Part shown: one piece after another, positions 15,326 through 60,990 of the stretch | How the letters are laid out: each line of letters opens with the position of its first letter | Numbering within the stretch: position 1 is the first letter of the stretch | IMG/VR virus record: IMGVR_UViG_3300037264_001603 | Coordinates: 1-64,000 of that record | Strand: one strand, 5' to 3' | Length of the DNA stretch: 64,000 nt | Source: a virus | Made by a program: the position numbers and the translations under genes | Notes under the pieces: model-generated | Databases searched by the model: none | The model's input: the letters and a program-made list of their open reading frames with translations, nothing else | What the model was told of the DNA's origin: nothing

Positions 15326-15790
15326 GTGCCAGGAGTAGCAGACCAAATCGGTAAGACTCAGAAGAAGCAGGAGCAGAAGGCTAGACAAGCGGACATGAAA
15401 GAGCTTTTACGTATGGTCCAGGAAGGTAGACTTCATGAGGCCGACGAAAGGCAACTGGAGTCTCTCAAGTTAGCCTTAGAGATCAATACCCTCATAGGCG
15501 AGAAGTCCGCAGCTCCCGCGCCTACGATTGACCCTACCCAGCTAGTAGAGGCCGTCAAGCAGGCTATCACTGAGGGTATGTCTAACGTAACGATCAACGC
15601 GGTGTCTTCAGGCGACGCGATCAACGACCCCTCCCGCCCCCAGATGAAGCATGTATCACTGGCCGATCTCGTCCAGGATGATACCAAGGTGGACATCTCC
15701 CATAGTGAAGGTGTCAGCAAGGATGTTGCGGGTGGAGAAGCGTCTACCGACAAGCTAGAGCAGTTGAGGAAGCTTAAGGGCGGCAAGTAA
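15326..15790 (+). CDS. largely disordered protein near the actin-like gene
   Basis: AAGGA SD; ends in amphipathic DKLEQLRKLKGGK. Confidence 0.6.
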   Translation: MPGVADQIGKTQKKQEQKARQADMKELLRMVQEGRLHEADERQLESLKLALEINTLIGEKSAAPAPTIDPTQLVEAVKQAITEGMSNVTINAVSSGDAINDPSRPQMKHVSLADLVQDDTKVDISHSEGVSKDVAGGEASTDKLEQLRKLKGGK

Positions 15791-16554
15791 TGCCCAGCAA
15801 TATCAGCTCTATCCGGTTTGATGGCATTTCTGGCCAAATGACCGTAACTGATTACAAGGGCGTTACGGGTCGTATTCCACGCAGTATTGCCTTTTGGATG
15901 AAGACCCCCGCATCTGGAGTGGCCAATGAAGGCACCATCTGTTACTGGGGAAACGAACTAGATACAGGTTCTTTGCGAACAGGAACAACTACAAAGGTCG
16001 GACTTGTTTCTGGAGGTAAAGACGAAACACACGCCGCATTGTTTGGTTTAGGCTCCTTCCGAGAATCTGACGATGATGTGGGGGATGGTAAATGGCATCA
16101 CGTTTGTTTCACATGGCCAGGTGGGAAAAAAACCTACGGATCCTCGCAATGCTACATTGATGGGGCATTGAGTAATGGTCCGTCGGGAAAAGTTTCGGGC
16201 TCAGAGAACATAAACACGCCTGAAACACAAGATGTTACATTGGGATGTGAGCCGTCAGTGCTCTTTGGTAATCAAGAGTTCTTTGCCGGCCAATTAGATG
16301 ATTTCTGTATCTTCAGCACTGACATAGGAAGCGTGGGGGCATCTCAACTAGCCGCCAGTGGACATGGGAATATAGATATTGCGGCAAGTGGTATCTTCTC
16401 ATCAAACCTTGCGGTTTGGTATCGTATGGGCGATGTTCCTGGGGACACTGCGGGGGACAACGGGACCATCCAGGATGCTTCTGGGAATGGCAGAGATGCC
16501 GCAACAACGGCCGGTACTACCTTATTGGCAGATCCCGGACCGGAGGTGTACTAA
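15790..16554 (+). CDS. LamG-like virion protein
   Basis: SIRFDG, SIAFWMKT, DGKWHHVCFT, YIDG, FFAGQLDD, WYRMGD. Confidence 0.8.
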   Translation: MPSNISSIRFDGISGQMTVTDYKGVTGRIPRSIAFWMKTPASGVANEGTICYWGNELDTGSLRTGTTTKVGLVSGGKDETHAALFGLGSFRESDDDVGDGKWHHVCFTWPGGKKTYGSSQCYIDGALSNGPSGKVSGSENINTPETQDVTLGCEPSVLFGNQEFFAGQLDDFCIFSTDIGSVGASQLAASGHGNIDIAASGIFSSNLAVWYRMGDVPGDTAGDNGTIQDASGNGRDAATTAGTTLLADPGPEVY

Positions 16555-48788: not shown

Positions 48789-49454
48789 ATGATCGATACG
48801 CCAAAAGACCCAAAACTGGACGTCGATGACCTCACTCGCAAGGGCGAGGAAGATCCTAAATCTAAAGGGTGGAACAACCCGAACAGTCGTAAGAATTTGA
48901 GGCAGTACCAAGAGCCCCTCGTTCCCGAAGTCGTTTCAGGAGATCTGGAAGACGAAGAGAGCGACATCTCACAGATTGTAATAGGGCGCAAGCTAAGTCC
49001 CGACGTAGTCAGAAAATTGATGCCCCAGCGGGGAGTCCTTACTGCCGCCGAAAAAAAGCGGTTCATTGGGGTGGTTCAACAATTTCTGGGAGATTTCAAG
49101 ACTGAAGAGCCCACAGCTGCTGACGTAGATGATATCTTCGAAATAGCGGAAAGCGACATCATGAAAACCCGGCTGCTCTCAGCCGCCAAAGATAGTCCCG
49201 ATGCCATCGTCAATATCAACCAAGCGTTGGAGCGTATCTACAAGAGAAAGCAAACTGCTAAAGAGAACCTATCCGCCCGCCGATCTGATCGGAAGGATGC
49301 CAGGGCTTCTCAGGACATCAACATCGTTGATCTCGTGGTCCGTTACGACCTAGAACAAAAGAGACGAGACGAAGAACGTGTTGCTGTTCTACTCGCGGAA
49401 GAAGAGACTACAGCCAATAAGCTTAGCGAGGTCCTGGAGAAGGACGGATACTAA
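48789..49454 (+). CDS. putative terminase small subunit
   Basis: Helical protein immediately upstream of TerL; NPNSRKNL motif. Confidence 0.55.
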   Translation: MIDTPKDPKLDVDDLTRKGEEDPKSKGWNNPNSRKNLRQYQEPLVPEVVSGDLEDEESDISQIVIGRKLSPDVVRKLMPQRGVLTAAEKKRFIGVVQQFLGDFKTEEPTAADVDDIFEIAESDIMKTRLLSAAKDSPDAIVNINQALERIYKRKQTAKENLSARRSDRKDARASQDINIVDLVVRYDLEQKRRDEERVAVLLAEEETTANKLSEVLEKDGY

Positions 49455-49456
49455 TC

Positions 49457-51289
49457 TTGCAGAGTCTGCTGGAAGACTTAGACTTTCTTAACCAATCAGA
49501 TGAACTCGTAGAGTTCTATCGACAATATCCTGAAATCGCAGCCGAAGACCTTCTAAGAGTCAAACTTAGTTCGATTCAAAAGGTAGTCTTGAGGTCCATG
49601 TGGTTTCGGGACTATGTTATGGCCATCATGTGTCGAGGCGCTGGTAAGACTTTCTTACTGGCTGTCTTTTCGTGTTTGAAGGCCATGCTCTACCCAGGAC
49701 ATCGCGTCGGACTTCTAGCCCCTACCTTTCGTCAGAGCAAGTACATCTTTGACGAATGTGATAAGCTCTATCATCGCTCCCCCGTCCTGCAAGCGGCCTG
49801 CGAGCGTAAACCCACCTCGGCCTCGGACAACTGCTACCTCCGCTTCAAAGCCGTAGGCACCAAGAACCCCTCCGTCATTCAAGCCATCCCCCTCGGCGAC
49901 GGTACCAAGATCAGAGGTTCGCGTTTCTTCACCATCCTCTGCGACGAGTTTCCTCACATTCCAGACGAGATCTTCAACATGGTTATCCGTCCAATGGCGG
50001 CTACTCTTGCCGACCCGATGGAGAATGTAGAGAAGGTTTCTCGCCAGAAAGAGCTGTTGGAACGAGGTTTGATTACCCAAGCAGACATTGATGCTGACAC
50101 CGCCACCAACCAAATCATCATTACGTCATCTGGTTACTTTACCTTTAACCACATGTACAAGTTGTATTGCGCTTACAAAGAGGAAATGAGGACGGGGAAT
50201 GGTAAGTATGCCGTTTTTCGTGTGCCTTACTGGCTTTTACCAGACGGATTTTTGGATAAGAAGGCAATTGAAGCTGCCAAACGAGAAATGTCTAGCCTTG
50301 AGTTTAGGATGGAGTATGAAGCAGCCTTCATTCCTGACACAGATGCGTTCTATAAGGCTTCCCTATTAGAAGCATGTTCGCGTACAGGGTTCTCTACACG
50401 GGTTGCGGGCGAGCATGGAAAGACTTATTGTTTAGGTATAGACCCAGCCAGAAGTGAAGACTCCTTCGCTATCGCTATCGCAGAACTTGGCGTCCCAGCT
50501 AAAATCGTCCATGCCCTAGAACTTCAGAAGCAGCCCTTCCCTAGAATGGCGGAGCTGATTGAAGATCTATGCGATGCATTCAACGTTCAACACATTTACA
50601 TGGATGCTGGCGGTGGTGGATTAGCCATCAAAGACATTCTTGCAGAAAACAATCGCGGCCATCGAGCAGGCCCAATTTTGGATCCCGAGGATGAGGCCCA
50701 TCAGGTCAAATCCGGAAGACACATCATAAAGATGTGCAACTTCGGAGTAGATTTCATCTCGGAGTCCAACTTTGCGGCACTAAGACTGCTTGAGAACCGC
50801 GATTTGCTTTTTCCGAGTGTGCCTGTTGGAGATACTCCCACCCCCGCTGAAGAAGAGGGTTGGGATAAGATCCAGGAAATGAAGCGCCAGATGCAGATGA
50901 TCTCGCTTTCGGAGACTCCCACTGGTAAGTATCATTTCGATGTACCCAAAGGCGAAGGACACGGGAAGCAGAAGAAGGATTTGTATACATCCTTCATGCT
51001 GGCTGCCCGTTGTGTATATGACCATTTGTGGGCACATGAACTTGCGGAGAGTGTTCTCTTCCACGGGGGCGTACTTAGGCCCCGGGAAGATCGAGCTTCT
51101 CGTCCCGTCATCAACTCTGATGGCGTTCCTGTCGATGATGCTATTCCCCAGGTGATTAGGGATAAACTGGAAATGGCACAAGATCCTGTCGGCTTCAAAC
51201 AGCGTTTGATGCAAAGGGCATTCAATAAGCGTACCTTGTTGACTAGTCCCTACGCCGTCTTGAAACCGGTTCCCAAGAAGAAGAAATAG
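49457..51289 (+). CDS. terminase large subunit
   Basis: RGAGKT, APTFRQS, IRGSR, CDEF, EYEAAF, LGIDPA, DAGGGG, KKDLY. Confidence 0.92.
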   Translation: MQSLLEDLDFLNQSDELVEFYRQYPEIAAEDLLRVKLSSIQKVVLRSMWFRDYVMAIMCRGAGKTFLLAVFSCLKAMLYPGHRVGLLAPTFRQSKYIFDECDKLYHRSPVLQAACERKPTSASDNCYLRFKAVGTKNPSVIQAIPLGDGTKIRGSRFFTILCDEFPHIPDEIFNMVIRPMAATLADPMENVEKVSRQKELLERGLITQADIDADTATNQIIITSSGYFTFNHMYKLYCAYKEEMRTGNGKYAVFRVPYWLLPDGFLDKKAIEAAKREMSSLEFRMEYEAAFIPDTDAFYKASLLEACSRTGFSTRVAGEHGKTYCLGIDPARSEDSFAIAIAELGVPAKIVHALELQKQPFPRMAELIEDLCDAFNVQHIYMDAGGGGLAIKDILAENNRGHRAGPILDPEDEAHQVKSGRHIIKMCNFGVDFISESNFAALRLLENRDLLFPSVPVGDTPTPAEEEGWDKIQEMKRQMQMISLSETPTGKYHFDVPKGEGHGKQKKDLYTSFMLAARCVYDHLWAHELAESVLFHGGVLRPREDRASRPVINSDGVPVDDAIPQVIRDKLEMAQDPVGFKQRLMQRAFNKRTLLTSPYAVLKPVPKKKK

Positions 51290-51299
51290 GAGATCTTAG

Positions 51300-53159
51300 A
51301 TGGCCGACGAAGTAAAGGACAGGTTGAACCAGGACCTCAAGAACTCTAAAGTTCTCTCCCATGAGGAAGTTAGGCCCGGTGTTCATGCGATGGAAATTGA
51401 TGTAGGCCCTAAAGGCAAGCCTGCCGCAGAGCTAGCTTATCTTGATCCTCGTCGCGGCGATACCAACCCAATGAAGTTCCACGAGGGTGGTCGAGTTATT
51501 ACCCGCGATTATGTTCGACGCGTAGACCTGGATCTTTTGAGTGGTAGGCCAGAGGTTACTCGGGCGCAACCACAACAGATTTACCAGCGCGCTATCGATT
51601 TCTACAAGGCCAAGGGCCCCTATGGTACTTGGATTGACACCCTTTCTAACTTTGCATCCAAGGGTTTCAAGAATGACATCGACGACGAAGACATCAAGCT
51701 CTTCTATGACACCTGGACTGAAGAGATCGGTTTCCAGGAGACGGTAGAGAAGATCTTCTTTGATTTCTTTCGCGTGGGAATGGTTCGTACCTTCAAGTTG
51801 GTGGGTAAGTTTGACCCCAAGCTGAAGCCAGAAAATTTTGATTCAGTAGTAGCTCGCCGCAGCCAAGCTAATCTTTCCGAGAGTTCTGAGGACATGAAGA
51901 AGCTGATTGCGTATCGAGATATTGCAGCAGCTAAGAAGATTTGGTCCAAGTCCTTTGTCCCCCTGCAGTACACCATCCTCAATCCGGTGCTGATTGAGAG
52001 TCGTGGGTCCCTATTGTTCGATCAGACTGAAACTTACCTGAAGCCCGAAGCCTTCAAGGAACTATCTGAAGTACTAAAGAATCCTTCCAAAGCCAGCCCG
52101 GAACAACGTAAGTTCATTTCCGCCCTGCCCAAGGAACTCAAGGACGCTATTCGTAAGAACCAACCTGTTCTTCTTCCCGCCGAGTTGGTAGGCAAGTGCG
52201 ACTATCGACGCCAGGACTATGAACGCTATGCGATGCCTAAAGCGGCTAGAATGTTCGATGACATGTTCTACAAGGATAAGCTCAAGGAAGCAGACTATTC
52301 CACTTTGGATGGTATCACCAATTACATCCTCAAGGTTACTGTGGGTAATGACGAGCATCCCGTAACGACCCAAGCCGAACTGGATTCTATCGCTCGACTA
52401 TTTGATACTTCCAGCAAGAGCTTCGATATCGTCTACAACCACACTCTGGAGATCGAGAAGATTACCTTCCCCGAGATTAGCCAGATTCTGGGTGTGTCCA
52501 AGTTCGAGCAGGTAAACGACGATCTGAGCCAGGCGATTGGAGTTACCCGGGCCCTGTTAGATGGGAACACTACCGGTAATGCTGAAGGTATCAAGGCTGC
52601 TCTCAAGGGATTTTCTGAGGAAGTAAACTACGCTAGACGTCAAATTCGGCGTTGGATCAATAACGAGTACGAAGAAGTTGCTCTGGCTATGGGCTTTGAT
52701 CGTTATCCAATTGTACGTTTCGACGAGAACACCCTCAAGGACGAGATCATGATGATGAGCGTCATCCAGGGTATGATCGACCGACGCATCCTCTCCTACG
52801 AGACGGGTATCGAGAAGCTAGGCTTCGACTTCTCCAACGAGTTGGCCAACTTCAAGCAAGAGAAGCCGCTGGTTCAGGACGGTATTCTGGGCATCCTTGG
52901 TTCGCCGTACAACATGAAGGCGATGCCGGCGACCGGCCCGGTTCCGGACAAGGATACTACTGTCGACGGACAGCCTACCACGGTTACCAAGAAGGATCTT
53001 ACCGACTTCCAGAACAACATCCAGAAGATGGTTGAGGAAAACATTCAGAAGGTCCAGCGTACCCCTGTGGGTACTCCGAGCGAGGGCCGCCCCCGAAAGG
53101 GACGCGGCAAGCCCCGCCAGAAGTCCACCACCCCGAACATTAAACCAACAAAACCCTAA
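51300..53159 (+). CDS. portal protein
   Basis: Follows TerL; 619 aa, helical; ILNP, VTVG, P.VRF pattern. Confidence 0.8.
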   Translation: MADEVKDRLNQDLKNSKVLSHEEVRPGVHAMEIDVGPKGKPAAELAYLDPRRGDTNPMKFHEGGRVITRDYVRRVDLDLLSGRPEVTRAQPQQIYQRAIDFYKAKGPYGTWIDTLSNFASKGFKNDIDDEDIKLFYDTWTEEIGFQETVEKIFFDFFRVGMVRTFKLVGKFDPKLKPENFDSVVARRSQANLSESSEDMKKLIAYRDIAAAKKIWSKSFVPLQYTILNPVLIESRGSLLFDQTETYLKPEAFKELSEVLKNPSKASPEQRKFISALPKELKDAIRKNQPVLLPAELVGKCDYRRQDYERYAMPKAARMFDDMFYKDKLKEADYSTLDGITNYILKVTVGNDEHPVTTQAELDSIARLFDTSSKSFDIVYNHTLEIEKITFPEISQILGVSKFEQVNDDLSQAIGVTRALLDGNTTGNAEGIKAALKGFSEEVNYARRQIRRWINNEYEEVALAMGFDRYPIVRFDENTLKDEIMMMSVIQGMIDRRILSYETGIEKLGFDFSNELANFKQEKPLVQDGILGILGSPYNMKAMPATGPVPDKDTTVDGQPTTVTKKDLTDFQNNIQKMVEENIQKVQRTPVGTPSEGRPRKGRGKPRQKSTTPNIKPTKP

Positions 53160-53195: not shown

Positions 53196-55484
53196 ATGAC
53201 TACAAAAGACGTAGGCAAGAACGCCGCAAAGAGCCTACTCGAAGAAGTTCGAGAGCTTGCTCTAGTTGTAGGCGAAGATTGTCCAGAAGGGCATCGCAAA
53301 GATCCTGGCAGCGGAAGATGCTTGCCAATGGGCGGACAAGACCACACACGATTCACGCGAAGCGTCAATAATGATGACGGCCCACAGTGGCGCGGAGAGG
53401 TCGATAAGACCAATACCACCTTTGCTTCCCAGAAAGAAGTGGCCCTTGACGCAGATGATATGGACGAACCACAAAGTTGTGCTGCCGGCACGACTTTTTC
53501 TTTTGTGCAGAGAAAATGCGTTTCCCTAGAGGAAGCCGAAGCGGAAGATAACGGAGACCTTGCGTTCGTAGAGGAAGAGGTAGCGGTGCAGCCTGAAGGC
53601 CGTCGCGATACTCCTAATCACGCATGCCCGGCCAACCAGTTCTTCGATTTCAAGCGCCGCGAGTGCATCCCTCTAAACAAGGATACTGTATTGGCATCTG
53701 AGGATGTGGACGATGAGTTCAAGAAGGTGGTAGCTACTTACTTGTCGGGACGACTAGGAGTAACCTCCCCTGATCCTATTGATGGCCACAAGCATTTGGT
53801 TACAGTAGACACCGAAGGGAGTGGTAAGTCTTCCGTTTCTTCTAGCTATCATGGGGCGGAGTCTTACTATCATTCCCATGATGTAGAAGGTTATCTAGTT
53901 CAGGATTACAAGAAAGGCGACTACCTCTCTCAGCACTTTGGACACGTTATTCCCAAGGAAATGTGGGAGCACGAGGACCACAGTTCAGACGCGGTTCCGG
54001 GCACGGCTGTGCCAGTTGCCGCCGAAGAAGCCAAGGAACTGCGCTCCAAGCAGCGAAACGCTCTTCCGGACAGCTCCTTTGGAGTTCCCGGTAAGAGGAA
54101 GTTCCCGCTAAACGACTGCGGGCATGTGCGCAATGCCATGGCTCGTTTCAATCAGGCCAAGGGCCTGACTTCCGGCGAGAAGGCGACTCTCCGCCGAAAG
54201 ATCCTATCCCGGGCCAACGCCTGTGGAATCAAAGTCACCAGCTTCGGTAAGGCAAATACTGCAGAGGAGTTTGCCGCCGTCGTACAGGAGCTAATAGCAA
54301 TGGAAACTCCAACCGAGACCCCTGTAGAGACTACAGAAACCGCTGAACGAATGAAGACATATGAGGCCGCAGCCCCGTACGCGGGACCTTGTCCTCCCGG
54401 AATGGTGTGGGATAAGATGGCCAAGAAGTGCTCCAAGGTTAGAGGTTTTGTAGAGGAACTGGCCAACCATTCTGAAATCGTTAGCAAGCAGCCAGAAGGC
54501 CGCCGAGACCCCGTTGGTTTCCAGTGCCCCGCTGGCAGCTTCTTTGACTTTACGGATCGCAAGTGTGTTCCTCTTGATCCTTCCAAGAAGCCTGGTACTA
54601 CAACTACTAAGGCCAATGAGGAAGAGGATGCCGCAAAGAACAACCTCTCCCCGGGTCCCGCAGGTCAGCCTGCTCGTCTTCCCCAGGATTGCCCAGCCGG
54701 TACTATTTGGGATGGCGATCTACGAACTTGCAAGCCTTTAGACAGCAGCAAGAAGACCAAGTCCGCTGAGGAAGAGGCTGCATTGCCGGACTTCCTGAAA
54801 AAGATGATGGAGAAGAAAAAGAACAAGAAGGCCAAGTCTGAAGAGGAAGAGTCCCAGAGTACTTCTAACGGCCCCGGTAATAAGGGTGGCCCCGGTTGCC
54901 CTGAAGGCCAGTTCATGAATCCTGTTACTAAGAAGTGCATGCCTCGCAAGGGTGCCTTCAAGGGGAAGAGTGAGACTGAGACCGCAGGACGCGAAGGCCT
55001 AACGACTGAAGTTCCGGGTAAGGTAAAGCTTCCCCAGGATTGCCCAGATGGTACCATTTGGGATGGCAACCGCCGCACCTGCACCCCACTAGATCCTAGC
55101 GACAAGAACCGCCCTAGCGGTAGTTCTGGTCCGATGAATCCCAAGAGTGTGGCTTCTCTATCCACCGCACAGTTGATTCAGGCGCTGGATGAGATTCTCA
55201 AGGAGCAGGGTGCCAAGGAGAAGAGTAGGGTTGTAGCCAAGTCTCTTCCCAACGCCGCGTTTCCTCCCTCCCTCGTCAGCGCTGCTCACCGCGCTTTGAT
55301 GCATCACAATCCAGACGTTACAGATCCCTATGATAACGCATCGGTTGATGTGGCCCGCCTGCGCAATGCTCTTTACCGCTCAGGCAAGGTAGAAGGTTTC
55401 TCGGATAAGGCTGTTGAGGATGGAATTGAACATCTTCTCTTCCACGCCCGCGAGATCGTAGAGGCCCGAACAAAAAAAGACTAA
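53196..55484 (+). CDS. modular head protein with eight C-x12-C repeats, a His-rich module and two DUF6582-like domains; probable -1 frameshift extension to 55933
   Basis: CPxG...C repeats; LPDSSFG..RKFPL...HVRNAMARF; LPNAAF...LRNAL. Confidence 0.75.
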   Translation: MTTKDVGKNAAKSLLEEVRELALVVGEDCPEGHRKDPGSGRCLPMGGQDHTRFTRSVNNDDGPQWRGEVDKTNTTFASQKEVALDADDMDEPQSCAAGTTFSFVQRKCVSLEEAEAEDNGDLAFVEEEVAVQPEGRRDTPNHACPANQFFDFKRRECIPLNKDTVLASEDVDDEFKKVVATYLSGRLGVTSPDPIDGHKHLVTVDTEGSGKSSVSSSYHGAESYYHSHDVEGYLVQDYKKGDYLSQHFGHVIPKEMWEHEDHSSDAVPGTAVPVAAEEAKELRSKQRNALPDSSFGVPGKRKFPLNDCGHVRNAMARFNQAKGLTSGEKATLRRKILSRANACGIKVTSFGKANTAEEFAAVVQELIAMETPTETPVETTETAERMKTYEAAAPYAGPCPPGMVWDKMAKKCSKVRGFVEELANHSEIVSKQPEGRRDPVGFQCPAGSFFDFTDRKCVPLDPSKKPGTTTTKANEEEDAAKNNLSPGPAGQPARLPQDCPAGTIWDGDLRTCKPLDSSKKTKSAEEEAALPDFLKKMMEKKKNKKAKSEEEESQSTSNGPGNKGGPGCPEGQFMNPVTKKCMPRKGAFKGKSETETAGREGLTTEVPGKVKLPQDCPDGTIWDGNRRTCTPLDPSDKNRPSGSSGPMNPKSVASLSTAQLIQALDEILKEQGAKEKSRVVAKSLPNAAFPPSLVSAAHRALMHHNPDVTDPYDNASVDVARLRNALYRSGKVEGFSDKAVEDGIEHLLFHAREIVEARTKKD
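54678..55047 (+). repeat. internal duplication in the Cys-repeat gene
   Basis: CTTCCCCAGGATTGCCCAG identical at 54678 and 55029 (LPQDCPxGTIWDG units). Confidence 0.85.
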
Positions 55485-55536
55485 GCGGATGGATTGATGA
55501 AGGTCAGATTACCAACCCCGCTGAGTTTCATCCGCT
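55472..55536 (+). promoter_or_regulatory. putative -1 ribosomal frameshift signal
   Basis: A AAA AAA, then 5 nt, then stem AGCGGATG/CATCCGCT. Confidence 0.7.
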
Positions 55537-55933
55537 GTGCCAACCCCAGGAAGTGTTTGATCCCAAGTCCGGCTCTTGCATCCCCGTCACTAATGTGAAG
55601 GGAGCTGATCCAGCGGGTACGCTGGAATGTCCGCCGGGCTACGTCCTGGACGAAAGTTTGGGCATGTGTCGTCCGGACGATCCGGTGAACACGGCGTCTA
55701 TGTCTTCAGGAGATAACTTTGTTCGATTGGAAGATATTCCTAAAGAATTGAGACCCGACCCTAAGAAGGTCAATAAGAAGAAAGAGACAGCTGCCCCCTT
55801 CAGACCTGACGCTAAAATGGAACGCTGCATTCGTGATGTAAAAGCCAATTTGGGTAACAAGAATCCCAAATTCAAAGGACAATCTGTTAAGAGTGCAGCG
55901 ATAGCAATTTGTAGATCGCGCCTCAAAGAATAG
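55478..55933 (+). CDS. -1 frame extension of the Cys-repeat head protein (two more repeats and a C-terminal C...AIAIC module)
   Basis: Open from the slippery site: RLSGWIDEGQITNPAEFHPLCQPQEVFDPKSGSC... Confidence 0.7.
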   Translation, partial: RLSGWIDEGQITNPAEFHPLCQPQEVFDPKSGSCIPVTNVKGADPAGTLECPPGYVLDESLGMCRPDDPVNTASMSSGDNFVRLEDIPKELRPDPKKVNKKKETAAPFRPDAKMERCIRDVKANLGNKNPKFKGQSVKSAAIAICRSRLKE

Positions 55934-55943
55934 GAGGTAGCCG

Positions 55944-56213
55944 ATGTGGGATTTTTTTCTCGAACTTCTAAAGACACATGGGCTACTAGCGGTGATCGAG
56001 GTTGCGGAAGCCCTCGTAATAGTTTATCTTTTTAGAGAGTCGCAGAAGAAGGATAAAGAGGTCCGCACTCTCAACGATAAACTTCTGGCCCAGTCGGAGA
56101 AGCGTTTAGAAGATGCATTAGAAGAAAAGGAATCCTACGAGGAGCTTGCTCGTGGGTTGGATAGATCCATAGACTTGCTAATCAAGGTATTCAAGAAGCA
56201 AAACGGAGATTAG
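55944..56213 (+). CDS. single-TM coiled-coil protein (holin-like)
   Basis: AGGAGG SD; TM followed by coiled coil. Confidence 0.55.
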   Translation: MWDFFLELLKTHGLLAVIEVAEALVIVYLFRESQKKDKEVRTLNDKLLAQSEKRLEDALEEKESYEELARGLDRSIDLLIKVFKKQNGD

Positions 56214-56214
56214 T

Positions 56215-56439
56215 ATGGCCCAAACAGCTCTACAGGAGGTAGAAACTTCCATGAAGAAGATTCTAGACCAGCGTAATGCCGACGTCGAGAAGGTTAAGGC
56301 CGCTAAGAAAGTGCGCCGAAAGAATACCATCAAGAATTTGGATTCCTTATGCGAATTGATTCAGAACGGGGACCACAAACATGACTCAGAAGAGGCAAAA
56401 GCCGAGGCCCTCCCCGAGCCTCAACCCCTGGTAAGTTAG
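56215..56439 (+). CDS. hypothetical protein
   Basis: GGAG SD. Confidence 0.6.
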   Translation: MAQTALQEVETSMKKILDQRNADVEKVKAAKKVRRKNTIKNLDSLCELIQNGDHKHDSEEAKAEALPEPQPLVS

Positions 56440-56445
56440 GAGGAC

Positions 56446-57822
56446 ATGATGACAACAGAGAACAAGGTCAGAGTCTATGCTCCGATTCAAGTCCAGCAGG
56501 AAGTGGAGCTGGCAGCAGCGGAGAAAGCGGCAGTTCTAACTTTTCCAGACGAAAAACAGGGCGATCTTCAGTATATTCGCTCCATTCTAGTATCTGCCGG
56601 TACTAACAAGAACGGTGCCCATTTCTTGCCTTCCGAGATGATGCGGGCACACAATACCATCGTGCATAAGGCTATTGATATTGAGCACGAAGAGGATAAG
56701 GTTATTGGGCATATCTACGAATGTGCTTTCCTCTACAAGGATGGTTCCCAGTTTGATCCGACCAAGGTAATGGCGGAGTTCCAGGAAACCTCCAAGAATC
56801 CTGATGATCTTGATATGGACATTGCTGTAGCGGGTGTGATACACAAGATGCGGTTCCCACAGTTGGCCGAAGAGATTTTCAAGGGCGACTGGAAGGTCAG
56901 CATGGAATGCTACTTCAAGGATTTCGATATCAAGATTGGCAATCAGATCATTACTCGGTCCGAAGCGCAGGCTTTGGGCTATAACCCCGACGACCTCATC
57001 GGGGGCTTTGTAAAGGTAGTCGCTGGTACGAAGGCGCTAGGCAAGCACTTCGTTGCCCGAGTACTTCGAAACATTACCTTCAGTGGTATGGGTATCGTCA
57101 AGAACCCAGCCAACCCCCACTCCATCATTATGGAAACTGCTGCTCATCGTGAGCAACTGGAAAAGGGAGAGCAGGTAGTTGATTTGGAGCACATCGATAA
57201 CCTCCGAGGTCATAAAATCGAACTCTCTTCCGCAAAGGAAGATGAGCCAAAGGAGAAGGCTGCTGCCGTAAAGGTGGTCTCCGAAGATGGAACTATGCAA
57301 GCAGAAGAGCAAATCTACATCGAATTAGACAACGAAACCGGCGGCATCAAGCGCGTACTTACCGTTGGCGGTAAGGAAGACGCAGGTCTTCGCTGGTCTG
57401 GCCCTGGTACTGGTGGGCCTGGCAGCATTACCTCTTATCCTGATGAGCTTTGTAAGAGCTTCAAGAAGAGAGTAACCAAGTTCAATGCATTGGATCAGTC
57501 CGAGGCACAGGTAGTTCATGAGCACTGGTGTGCTCTGTTCGAAGAGTCCTGCCCGGTTATTGGTGCTACGGCCAAGGCCCCGGAATGTCTACGCAACGTT
57601 CGTAACCGAACTACGCGGGACGAGGCTGATAACACTCTGACCAAGACGGTACGGGACCATGTTTCCAAGGGACCGGCCAACACTTTCACTACGACCCTGC
57701 ACCAGCAATCTGCTTCTACCGGAGATCGCAAGGAGCAGGTGTCTCGTATCCGTACAGAAGCAGAAGCACTTAGAAATTCTCTTCGATCTTTTGTTGCGGC
57801 CGAAAAAAAAACTTTAGAATAA
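56446..57822 (+). CDS. prohead maturation protease; probable -1 frameshift extension to 58139
   Basis: NKNG..F, IDIEH...IGHI, VSMEC, FSGMGIVKNPA; located between portal and scaffold. Confidence 0.78.
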   Translation: MMTTENKVRVYAPIQVQQEVELAAAEKAAVLTFPDEKQGDLQYIRSILVSAGTNKNGAHFLPSEMMRAHNTIVHKAIDIEHEEDKVIGHIYECAFLYKDGSQFDPTKVMAEFQETSKNPDDLDMDIAVAGVIHKMRFPQLAEEIFKGDWKVSMECYFKDFDIKIGNQIITRSEAQALGYNPDDLIGGFVKVVAGTKALGKHFVARVLRNITFSGMGIVKNPANPHSIIMETAAHREQLEKGEQVVDLEHIDNLRGHKIELSSAKEDEPKEKAAAVKVVSEDGTMQAEEQIYIELDNETGGIKRVLTVGGKEDAGLRWSGPGTGGPGSITSYPDELCKSFKKRVTKFNALDQSEAQVVHEHWCALFEESCPVIGATAKAPECLRNVRNRTTRDEADNTLTKTVRDHVSKGPANTFTTTLHQQSASTGDRKEQVSRIRTEAEALRNSLRSFVAAEKKTLE

Positions 57823-57850
57823 TCAGTGAGCCAATTGAGGCTTCCTCAGT
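57804..57850 (+). promoter_or_regulatory. putative -1 frameshift signal
   Basis: GAA AAA AAA ACT; -1 frame open to 58139; short hairpins downstream. Confidence 0.55.
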
Positions 57851-58139
57851 CATAGCTTCGAACAAGGTAGTAAGATACAAGAGTAAGGCGGATGCATTCA
57901 AGACCGCTCACGCCTTAGAGCCCTCCGCAGAGAGGGAGAAGGTGGAAGGTTTCGTTCTTTTCGTTGGAGCCGGTCCAGACGTACTAGAGGCCGGTACCGA
58001 TCGCGAAGCTGCGATTGAGAGGGCCGTGGAAATTCTCAATGAGAATGACACGGTCGTTTTCCTATCGAAACTTCAATCCAAATTTGGCCAAGTATACGTA
58101 ACTAAAGATCAGCTGATGCTAGTAAGGAAATCAGAATAA
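57810..58139 (+). CDS. -1 frame extension of the protease (or a separate gene from GTG 57942)
   Basis: Open frame NFRIISEPIEASS...EREKVEGFVLFVG...RKSE. Confidence 0.55.
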   Translation, partial: NFRIISEPIEASSVIASNKVVRYKSKADAFKTAHALEPSAEREKVEGFVLFVGAGPDVLEAGTDREAAIERAVEILNENDTVVFLSKLQSKFGQVYVTKDQLMLVRKSE

Positions 58140-58152
58140 GGAGGAACGCAAA

Positions 58153-58365
58153 ATGGCAAAGCCGGATATTCAAGCGTCGTTCATCACTGCTTCTGGTACC
58201 CTATATCGTGATAAAGGTAAGCTTGGGCTCGAAGATAAAGGCCCGATTACCGGGAAAGCTCTCGGGGCTCTCAACTTTGCTAACGATGGCGCTGCCGCCC
58301 TCGGTGGCGTTCGCGTAGGCGAACTTTATCACAACGCAGGTGCAGTGAGAATCCGACTAGTCTAA
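58153..58365 (+). CDS. small virion protein
   Basis: AGGAGG SD; FANDGAAALGG...GELY motif. Confidence 0.65.
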   Translation: MAKPDIQASFITASGTLYRDKGKLGLEDKGPITGKALGALNFANDGAAALGGVRVGELYHNAGAVRIRLV

Positions 58366-58533
58366 CTAGTCTAGGTTTAACCGTATTAGTGTGTTGACTA
58401 CACTTTAGTCAAGGATTGCTTTTACAAGGGACACGGAGTAGATGAGAGGAAGTGTGACACAAAGAGCACACACGTTTGAAGCTCGTCGGGGGACGAGATA
58501 CAAACAGAATCCTGATAAGGAGGAAAAGCCGAT

Positions 58534-59922: not shown

Positions 59923-60990
59923 ATGGACAAGCAAAAGCTTGCTGAACTTTTTAAGGCAACTGCTGCATTTGACACTCCTGAGGGTGTCGAAGCATACAAG
60001 GCCTTCGCACAGGCACTAACCGTGCCCATTCTCCAGGAAATTCGAGACGCATCCATTATGCGACAGCTCTTCGCTGTTGAGCGACTCGCTCCTGGTGCTC
60101 AGGCCGTCTATCCAGTTGCTGACGACTTCGAGGTACCGGTGTTCGTTCTACCTGGCCTCGGATACATCGCACAGAACTTCGTCGAAGGTGTTGGTGAGGA
60201 AGTATACGTTCCTACCTTCTCCATCTCTGCATCCGCAGACTGGAAGGTAACCTACGCCCGAGATTCCCGCATTGACATTCCGGAGAGAGCAGCCCGCAAT
60301 ACTGCTCGTGCAATTGCAGACTTCGAGGAAGAGTCCGGTTGGCGCGTAATCGTGCCCGGCGGTACTACTAACTTCTCGGGTCAGGGTCTTCTCGGCCCAC
60401 GCAATGCTCCGATTTATCAGGTTCCTGCCGGTGCAACCGGTGAGAAGTTCCTTTCCAAGGAATTGATCAACCTGATGATGGTCGGTATGAAGCGAGTTCG
60501 CCGATCCCTAACTGATCTCTACATCTCCCCTGAGGACGCCGCTGACATTCGTGAGTGGACTGATACCCAGGTCGATCCTATCACCCGCCGAGAGATTTTC
60601 CAGGCTGCTGGTATGGGTACGGTTTGGAACGTCAATCTCCACGAGGTCTTCCAACTCGGTGCCACTGGTCGATTCAACATCAATCAGAACGGTGCTTCGT
60701 TTGGTATCTTCCAGGTTGATGGCGCTGGCGATTTCAACGACTATTCCCCAACCAACATTAACACTGTTGACGCGAATGGTAACGTTACCACCGCTGGTGA
60801 GACTCAGGTTTGGGGTTTCGATCTCTCTGTTAATGACTCTCTCGTCATGCCTATTCGCAAGGAGTACGAGGCCCACGACGATCCGACTCTTCTACGACAG
60901 CAGAAGCAAGGTTTCTTCGGCTGGGAGGAAGTTGGTTTCGCTCTACTCGATTCTCGAATGGTATCTCTTGGTGTCATCGACCGATCGTAA
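59923..60990 (+). CDS. major capsid protein (HK97 fold)
   Basis: 355 aa; position, strong SD, GFFGWEEVGFALLD C-terminal motif; followed by terminator. Confidence 0.87.
   Translation: MDKQKLAELFKATAAFDTPEGVEAYKAFAQALTVPILQEIRDASIMRQLFAVERLAPGAQAVYPVADDFEVPVFVLPGLGYIAQNFVEGVGEEVYVPTFSISASADWKVTYARDSRIDIPERAARNTARAIADFEEESGWRVIVPGGTTNFSGQGLLGPRNAPIYQVPAGATGEKFLSKELINLMMVGMKRVRRSLTDLYISPEDAADIREWTDTQVDPITRREIFQAAGMGTVWNVNLHEVFQLGATGRFNINQNGASFGIFQVDGAGDFNDYSPTNINTVDANGNVTTAGETQVWGFDLSVNDSLVMPIRKEYEAHDDPTLLRQQKQGFFGWEEVGFALLDSRMVSLGVIDRS

Follow-up and report, generated by a model that had tools for sequence, protein, structure and literature searches.

Recoding is textbook knowledge in tailed phages for tail chaperones and for some capsid proteins. 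In Escherichia coli dnaX and in insertion sequence (IS) elements, a -1 shift at an in-phase lysine heptamer (A_AAA_AAG or A_AAA_AAA) sets the product ratio, and the heptamer is accompanied by a 3′ stem-loop and often by a 5′ Shine-Dalgarno (SD)-like element. For Thermus thermophilus dnaX (tau/gamma), a review (PMC5009743) describes transcriptional slippage at a stimulator-free 9-base run within the gene (in the mRNA sense, A9); the two resulting products have their N-terminal part in common, and nearby stops give the short form. Here, we analyzed positions 1 to 64,000 of the IMG/VR virus record IMGVR_UViG_3300037264_001603 (a stretch of 64,000 nucleotides [nt], called the window), in which the gene of a probable capsid maturation protease (56446..57822, + strand) ends in a run of nine A's. 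Like E. coli dnaX and the IS elements, this gene carries an in-phase lysine heptamer, but neither a 3′ stem-loop nor an SD-like element is conserved around it. The likeness to T. thermophilus dnaX, drawn from the DNA run and from RNA seen as A9 contigs only, extends to the length of the run, the lack of a stimulator, the common N-terminal part, and the nearby stops. Slippage yields the shorter product there and would yield the longer one here, and the gene here is that of a phage head protease.

Two reading frames at the end of the protease gene

The 3′ end of the 458-aa protease ORF (open reading frame; protein P0001) reads GCG GCC GAA AAA AAA ACT TTA GAA TAA. The A9 run (57803..57811), which we regard as the slip site, holds the in-phase heptamer A_AAA_AAA (57804-57810), and the 0-frame stop of the short form, TAA, follows at 57820..57822. 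The -1 frame opens at 57774, 10 codons 5′ of the heptamer, and stays open to TAA at 58137-58139, taking in an ORF at 57942-58139; its translation is NFRIISEPIEASSVIASNK... and is also given as KKNFRIISEPIEASSVIASNK... After a shift in the run, a 564-aa isoform (455 + 109 aa) would be made beside the 458-aa one. The predicted junction of the long form, ...AAEKKNFRIIS..., is the same whether RNA polymerase or the ribosome slips, and IISEPIEASSVIASNK is an example of a predicted junction/extension peptide. Since the 0 and +1 frames each stop within a few codons, every outcome would be either short or long. A first-pass annotation, made from the letters of the window alone, had described the end of the protease, the run and its heptamer, the extent of the -1 frame, and the absorbed ORF, and all of these sequence statements hold. 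It had also put forward -1 recoding in the A run with isoforms of 458 and about 564 aa. The comparative evidence presented below, strong in our view (48 loci, natural in-frame fusions, and a start-less domain with a confident predicted fold), supports this proposal, and we consider conserved programmed -1 recoding at the A9 run, giving a 458-aa and a 564-aa protease, to be very likely.

The run is the sole homopolymer of at least 8 nt in the window, where 0.08 runs of at least nine A's are expected under a first-order model. Other runs of seven A's are found at 16126-16132 (not in phase as a heptamer with the ORF at 15790-16554) and at 49051-49057. The first-pass annotation had singled out the length of the run for a check in the reads; here it was judged from contigs and is A9 without indels in DNA and in two RNA libraries. 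In the DNA run that is probably the source, the stretch is contained in a single contig (depth 51) with A9. In two metatranscriptome libraries from a different study (X2 and X3), contigs covering 56688-58035 (depth of about 10) and 57708-57909 (depth of about 5) cross the run. These data confirm A9 independently of the source assembly and place the phage in RNA libraries. The near-identical phage sequence in these sediment metatranscriptomes (2025 study) corresponds to 55300-58500 of the window and has one T>C difference, at 56706. A further run of the RNA study, X15, gave no contig on the stretch, which is no proof of absence.

After removal of duplicates, 48 distinct loci covering the junction were compared (53 to 96% aa identity). 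In this comparison of related proteases, a check that the first-pass annotation had suggested, the run, the stop, and the -1 ORF were present in all 48. The run consists of nine A's in 36 loci and of ten in the other 12; the in-phase A_AAA_AAA heptamer is kept throughout, the 0-frame stop always lies 4 to 8 nt (2 to 3 codons) past the run, and the -1 ORF invariably comprises 103 to 110 codons. The A10 forms come from substitution (AAA for GAA, or AAT for ACT) with the frame offset kept, and the run length is thus no indel artefact. Many loci have a -1-frame TGA (NNT GAA) directly 5′ of the run; together with the 0-frame stop after it, this confines the shift to 13 to 16 nt. In one locus on a 1.2-kb metagenome contig (L094:997-1143), codon 19 of the extension is TAG (AAC TAG versus AAC AAG elsewhere); low coverage may have produced an error there, or the long form may be naturally knocked out.

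The pattern of substitution fits coding in the -1 frame. Just past the 0-frame stop, pairwise variation at -1-frame codon positions 1, 2, and 3 was 0.35, 0.17, and 0.51, respectively. At Phe-2 of the extension, an invariant TT before the 0-frame stop is followed by C or T; this third base is silent in the -1 frame and alters the 0-frame residue (Leu/Ser). Thus, selection on the -1 frame starts at the run, before the 0-frame stop.

Two homologs, P0077 (567 aa) and P0084 (569 aa), are natural in-frame fusions that carry the whole extension, and in both the Lys-Lys motif is lost, with TQT or EKS in its place. They form one clade (Shimodaira-Hasegawa-like approximate likelihood ratio test [SH-aLRT] support of 100) on a long branch among recoding-type genes. 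The tree is unrooted, three distant outgroups being scattered on very long branches, and nesting of the fused clade holds only if the root lies elsewhere than on the branch to that clade. As this in-frame clade shows, the long form can be sufficient by itself. Distant homologs (34 to 39% identity) have neither the run nor the extension.

The two single-frame relatives and the error-prone nature of homopolymers are what speaks for an error of sequencing or assembly, or for a gene broken only recently, with one 564-aa frame as the true gene. We regard this explanation as extremely improbable: the same frame relation recurs in 48 independent assemblies, including those with a substitution-made A10, and the contigs of the other study also read A9. 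Moreover, the 0-frame tail and its stop are conserved, and the fused forms have lost the Lys-Lys motif and have not gained a base.

The extension domain and the protease that would carry it

The -1-frame extension (57810..58139; 109 codons plus stop) was characterized by translation, alignment, and AlphaFold2 (AF2) and is predicted to form one alpha/beta domain. In an alignment of 42 extension sequences, the domain shows no gaps and 23 columns are invariant. Modeled alone, the extension reached a predicted local distance difference test score (pLDDT) of 94.5 and a predicted template modeling score (pTM) of 0.85, with the topology beta-beta-alpha-beta-beta-beta-alpha-beta-beta; in the full-length AF2 model, it is poorly modeled. 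The extension and the full-length protein were aligned separately (alignments A3 and A4).

The predicted fold also bears on the rival view that the downstream frame belongs to a small gene of its own, translated from GTG 57942, from another internal codon, or by reinitiation after the protease stop, with the A run being incidental. A GGGAG three bases 5′ of this GTG (57942..57944) and the 91-aa ORF given by database gene callers (P0207) argue for such a gene. Many relatives lack the GTG, and within the first 70 codons of the -1 ORF no conserved start exists: in one locus (L001) the first ATG, GTG, or TTG is codon 71, and in another (L010) a single GTG is present, at codon 19. The 43 codons preceding GTG 57942 are conserved as protein and correspond to the first two predicted strands and the first predicted helix, strand 1 (residues 2-15) being encoded in the apparent gap 5′ of the GTG, which itself lies inside the folded domain. 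The onset of -1-frame selection before the 0-frame stop and the existence of in-frame fusions also disagree with a separate gene, which we hold to be very improbable. Initiation at GTG 57942, the alternative that the first-pass annotation had set against its own proposal, is rejected because the codon is not conserved and the folded domain starts 43 codons earlier.

Searches with the extension retrieved no Pfam or PHROG family, and Foldseek found no match in the PDB (E above 0.1). The best VIA-align hit had a Z score of 4.5 and covered half of the domain, the best BFVD hits were unnamed proteins (E of 1.7e-3, template modeling [TM] score of 0.35), and scores in the ESM Atlas were 0.76 or lower. 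A search for longer proteins with the extension domain returned only P0084, a result that argues only weakly for the absence of others. At the junction, a T4-like L/I-x-E cleavage site (PIE/A) was considered and dropped; its residues lie in a predicted beta-strand, and the specificity of the protease is not established.

The identity of the gene product was addressed by structure prediction. The protease domain (56548..57156; approximately residues 35-237) has an assemblin/T4 gp21-like fold in the AF2 model of P0077, a homolog with 69% identity (pLDDT above 90 over residues 30-240). In VIA-align, this domain matched the protease of varicella-zoster virus (VZV; 1vzv) with a Z score of 10.7 (root mean square deviation [rmsd] of 2.8, 117 residues aligned) and T4 gp21 (5jbl_A) with a Z score of 9.7 (rmsd of 2.9, 127 aligned). 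Entries 1 to 37 of the ranking are all assemblin-family proteases, and the next one drops to a Z score of 5.5. In Foldseek, the best 50 listed PDB matches are all herpesvirus proteases, at weak significance (E of 6e-3 or weaker). Across 77 homologs, one His (in IDIEH) and one Ser (in VSMEC) do not vary; they are H81 and S152 in the window protein (H80 and S151 in P0077). Neither the window protein nor the 77 homologs match a protease family in Pfam or PHROGs, and a PDB sequence profile search retrieved no protease. The prohead protease proposed by the first-pass annotation is therefore recognized by its fold (Z scores of 9.7 to 10.7) and by no sequence family. By predicted fold and gene position, it is well supported that the product is a capsid maturation protease; in the short form, the protease domain is followed by a C-terminal helical tail.

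We found 817 protein homologs of P0001, mostly of about 460 aa, and the N-terminal 250 residues are common to approximately 1,500 cluster representatives of varied length. At residues of about 15-100 (window 56446-56750), 40 of the 77 homologs match phrog_27806, labeled "DNA methyltransferase"; the match covers positions 402-486 of the profile, which has 798 positions. Probably derived from a fusion protein, this label is misleading for the protease domain. The protease domain is separated from the C-terminal helix by a conserved Cys/His-rich module (C..SFKK...HEHWC..F...CP.......P.CLRN; residues of about 320-400, window 57400-57640), which is modeled with partial confidence and may bind metal.

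Routes of slippage and the sister site

For most of the protease expressed, synthesis would end at TAA 57820, giving the 458-aa protein. A fraction would slip one base back inside A9 (57803-57811) and read the -1 frame to 58139, yielding residues 1-455 joined to the 109-residue alpha/beta domain, which cannot be made otherwise. The A run alone may suffice for the slip, with no conserved RNA structure or upstream SD-like element. Two routes are conceivable: RNA polymerase could add an extra A to give an A10 mRNA, or two tRNA-Lys could slip together on A_AAA_AAA. That slippage occurs, at what level, and for what purpose we infer from the comparison of sequences, unlike the conserved run, the frame relation, and the coding extension.

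Slippage by RNA polymerase has about an even chance of being the route. The A's flanking the heptamer are kept, two beyond what a heptamer needs, and loss of an A on one flank is made good on the other (termini DGKKNS and SKKKALE). Such compensation is seen in P0106 (GGA AAA AAA AAT) and in P0087, which has Lys-Lys-Lys before Ala. According to PMC5009743, runs of nine A or T residues slip efficiently in vivo, and the hybrid within bacterial RNA polymerase measures 9 to 10 bp. The termini of 120 listed homologs were also inspected: those of the recoding type are compatible with at least nine A's except in one clade of three, and two further termini look truncated and are uninformative.

Another explanation is canonical -1 ribosomal frameshifting, in which tandem tRNA-Lys slippage is stimulated by a hairpin or by long-range pairing, as at a second site upstream in the same operon. 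The heptamer is in phase in all loci, and the upstream site is also of the heptamer type. The window does contain the two pairings noted in the first-pass annotation, a local hairpin (57834..57850; ATTGAGG 57834-40 with CCTCAGT 57844-50) and a long-range helix (GTGAGC 57826-31 with GCTCAC 57906-11), and the hairpin is also present in close relatives. As stimulators, neither is conserved. The hairpin begins 23 nt past the heptamer, and in half of the sequences it is disrupted at two of the seven pairs; for the long-range helix, pairing is seen in just 51% of the cells. RNAalifold detected no conserved pair downstream of the run in 45 sequences. The 110 nt downstream of the run in the window fold no better than shuffled controls (z of -0.46), and in ten relatives the fold energies equal those of shuffled controls (z of about 0), with unrelated structures. 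No SD-like element upstream is conserved in the alignment. Overall, no canonical stimulator (a 3′ stem-loop or pseudoknot 5 to 9 nt downstream, or a 5′ SD-like element) was found to be conserved, no explicit pseudoknot search having been made. In addition, the run is kept at nine or more A's although seven would be enough for a heptamer. A clade with at most A8, described below, would suit a stimulated ribosomal shift, which we nevertheless judge improbable at the protease gene.

The picture at the upstream (sister) site is different. There, the heptamer A_AAA_AAA (55472..55478) lies at the end of the gene for a 762-aa head protein, and the -1 frame continues to 55933. The -1 relation holds at each of 33 loci; some have A_AAA_AAA (A7 or A8) as the heptamer and others G_GGA_AAA (GGGAAAA), and the flanking codons vary freely. 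A stem-loop (55484..55536 in single-sequence folds) starts 5 to 6 nt past the heptamer. The stem forms in eight of ten folded relatives, with minimum free energies of -17 to -21 kcal/mol and z reaching -2.8, and its arms differ in sequence (GCGGAUGG/CCAUCCGC or GCACUGAGGG/CCUCAGUGC). RNAalifold gave no pairs at this site because indels misalign the 5′ arm, and single-sequence folds were used instead. The alternating heptamer, the free flanks, and the stem 5 to 6 nt downstream are strong comparative evidence that the sister site uses classical -1 ribosomal frameshifting. The earlier suggestion of two frameshifts of the same design is thus borne out insofar as the sister recoding site is real, but the designs differ: A7-8 or G_GGA_AAA with a stem-loop there, and A9 or A10 with no structure at the protease gene. 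With nine or more A's kept and no structure, slippage in transcription is no less likely at the protease gene than slippage of the ribosome.

A ribosomal slip on the A run may also proceed at a low level and unassisted by any stimulator. The constant in-phase X_XXY_YYZ heptamer, the use of -1 frameshifting by the same lineage at the sister site, and the A8 clade favor the ribosome; a small fraction of the long form may be enough, and the dominant RNA contig is A9. Against the ribosome alone, the two extra A's are kept or compensated in nearly all relatives, yet they are variable at the sister site. We consider this unassisted form of ribosomal slippage rather doubtful. Purely ribosomal slippage of any kind is a serious contender for the route, at somewhat less than even odds, and both routes may contribute.

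Several observations weigh against programmed recoding at the A run, or against details of it. First, the trans-frame product is a prediction from the comparison of sequences. Second, contigs from the RNA libraries show only A9; this fits either route, as minority variants are dropped in assembly and the contigs possibly derive from DNA. Third, the fused forms P0077 and P0084 are known as protein sequences only. Fourth, the short form in the clade of P0045, P0052, and P0058 ends with ...SEKKAL/SE; the EKKA motif permits at most A8, which weakens the argument from runs of at least nine A's. Finally, neither fold nor sequence points to a recognizable relative of the extension, which makes any role assigned to it a guess.

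Genomic setting and comparison with known systems

The source is an uncultured sediment phage. Its IMG/VR virus record, of which the window covers the first 64,000 nt, has a length of 77 kb and a judged completeness of 26%, and relatives on contigs of up to 312 kb mark the phage as a giant one. The GenBank phage collection contained neither a DNA nor a protein match. All genes of the head region are on the + strand, and the protease gene sits between those for portal and major capsid. The large terminase subunit (49457-51289) is followed by the portal gene (51300-53159; phrog_2739), the gene for the 762-aa head protein, which has Cys repeats (53196-55484), small ORFs, and then the protease gene. 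The next ORF after the extension encodes 70 aa (window 58140-58365), begins 14 nt past the extension stop, and has no family match; it has its own strong AAGGAGG Shine-Dalgarno sequence, whereas the extension lacks a ribosome-binding site. Between this ORF and the likely major capsid gene (59923-60990; weak Phage_capsid match), a 294-aa protein and then a 156-aa protein (weak match to a cement protein) are encoded.

No report of recoding in a maturation protease was found in the literature searched, and the words "prohead" and "scaffold" do not occur in the available text of PMC5009743. What is new relative to the searched literature is the gene affected and the domain joined to it, the mechanism itself having been described before. 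Annotation pipelines miss the predicted long form and report a 458-aa protein together with either a small, spurious ORF or an empty interval. The presence of two differently designed recoding sites in one operon of the same genomes offers a natural contrast between ribosomal and polymerase slippage. Furthermore, the 109-residue domain is a concrete target for studying how the copy number or placement of the protease in proheads may be controlled.

Among phage systems, the capsid frameshifts of T7/T3 gene 10A/10B, Lactobacillus phage A2, and Listeria phages A118, A500, and PSA, as covered in PMC5009743, resemble the protease gene in that a gene of the head module has a second, C-terminally extended product. 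They concern the major capsid protein and often add Ig-like surface domains, whereas the gene here encodes an internal, transient prohead protease, and its added domain is clearly matched by none of the solved or predicted viral structures. The lambda G/GT tail chaperone is similar in another way: toward the 3′ end of a morphogenesis gene, a -1 shift equips a minority of the molecules with a domain lacking a start codon, and the feature keeps its position across diverged tailed phages. In contrast to the protease locus, G/GT is a tail gene encoding unrelated proteins, and such genes usually have heptamers of the G_GGA_AAG type.

In the nested protease/scaffold pairs lambda C/Nu3, herpesvirus UL26/UL26.5, and P2 gpO, internal in-frame initiation yields proteins with common C-termini. 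As at the protease locus, one locus gives two related head-assembly proteins at a set ratio, one of them with an assemblin-fold protease; the predicted protease forms described here, unlike those pairs, would have a common N-terminus and, owing to a change of frame, different C-termini. A more far-reaching idea, to which we assign a low probability, is a two-site recoding program for the head interior. In such a program, ribosomal frameshifting would act on the Cys-repeat protein, and a polymerase slip, possibly of a phage-encoded RNA polymerase, would tag a fixed minority of the protease; the domain would then serve to place these molecules (the portal vertex being one candidate site) or be delivered as cargo. 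If this were true, prohead proteases would be general carriers of recoding-attached passengers in uncultured phages. Based on the analogy with lambda G/GT and the nested protease/scaffold pairs, we propose that a set minority of the protease molecules might bring an additional domain into the prohead, where it would serve as a tether, as cargo (the use suggested in the first-pass annotation), or as an oligomerization module.

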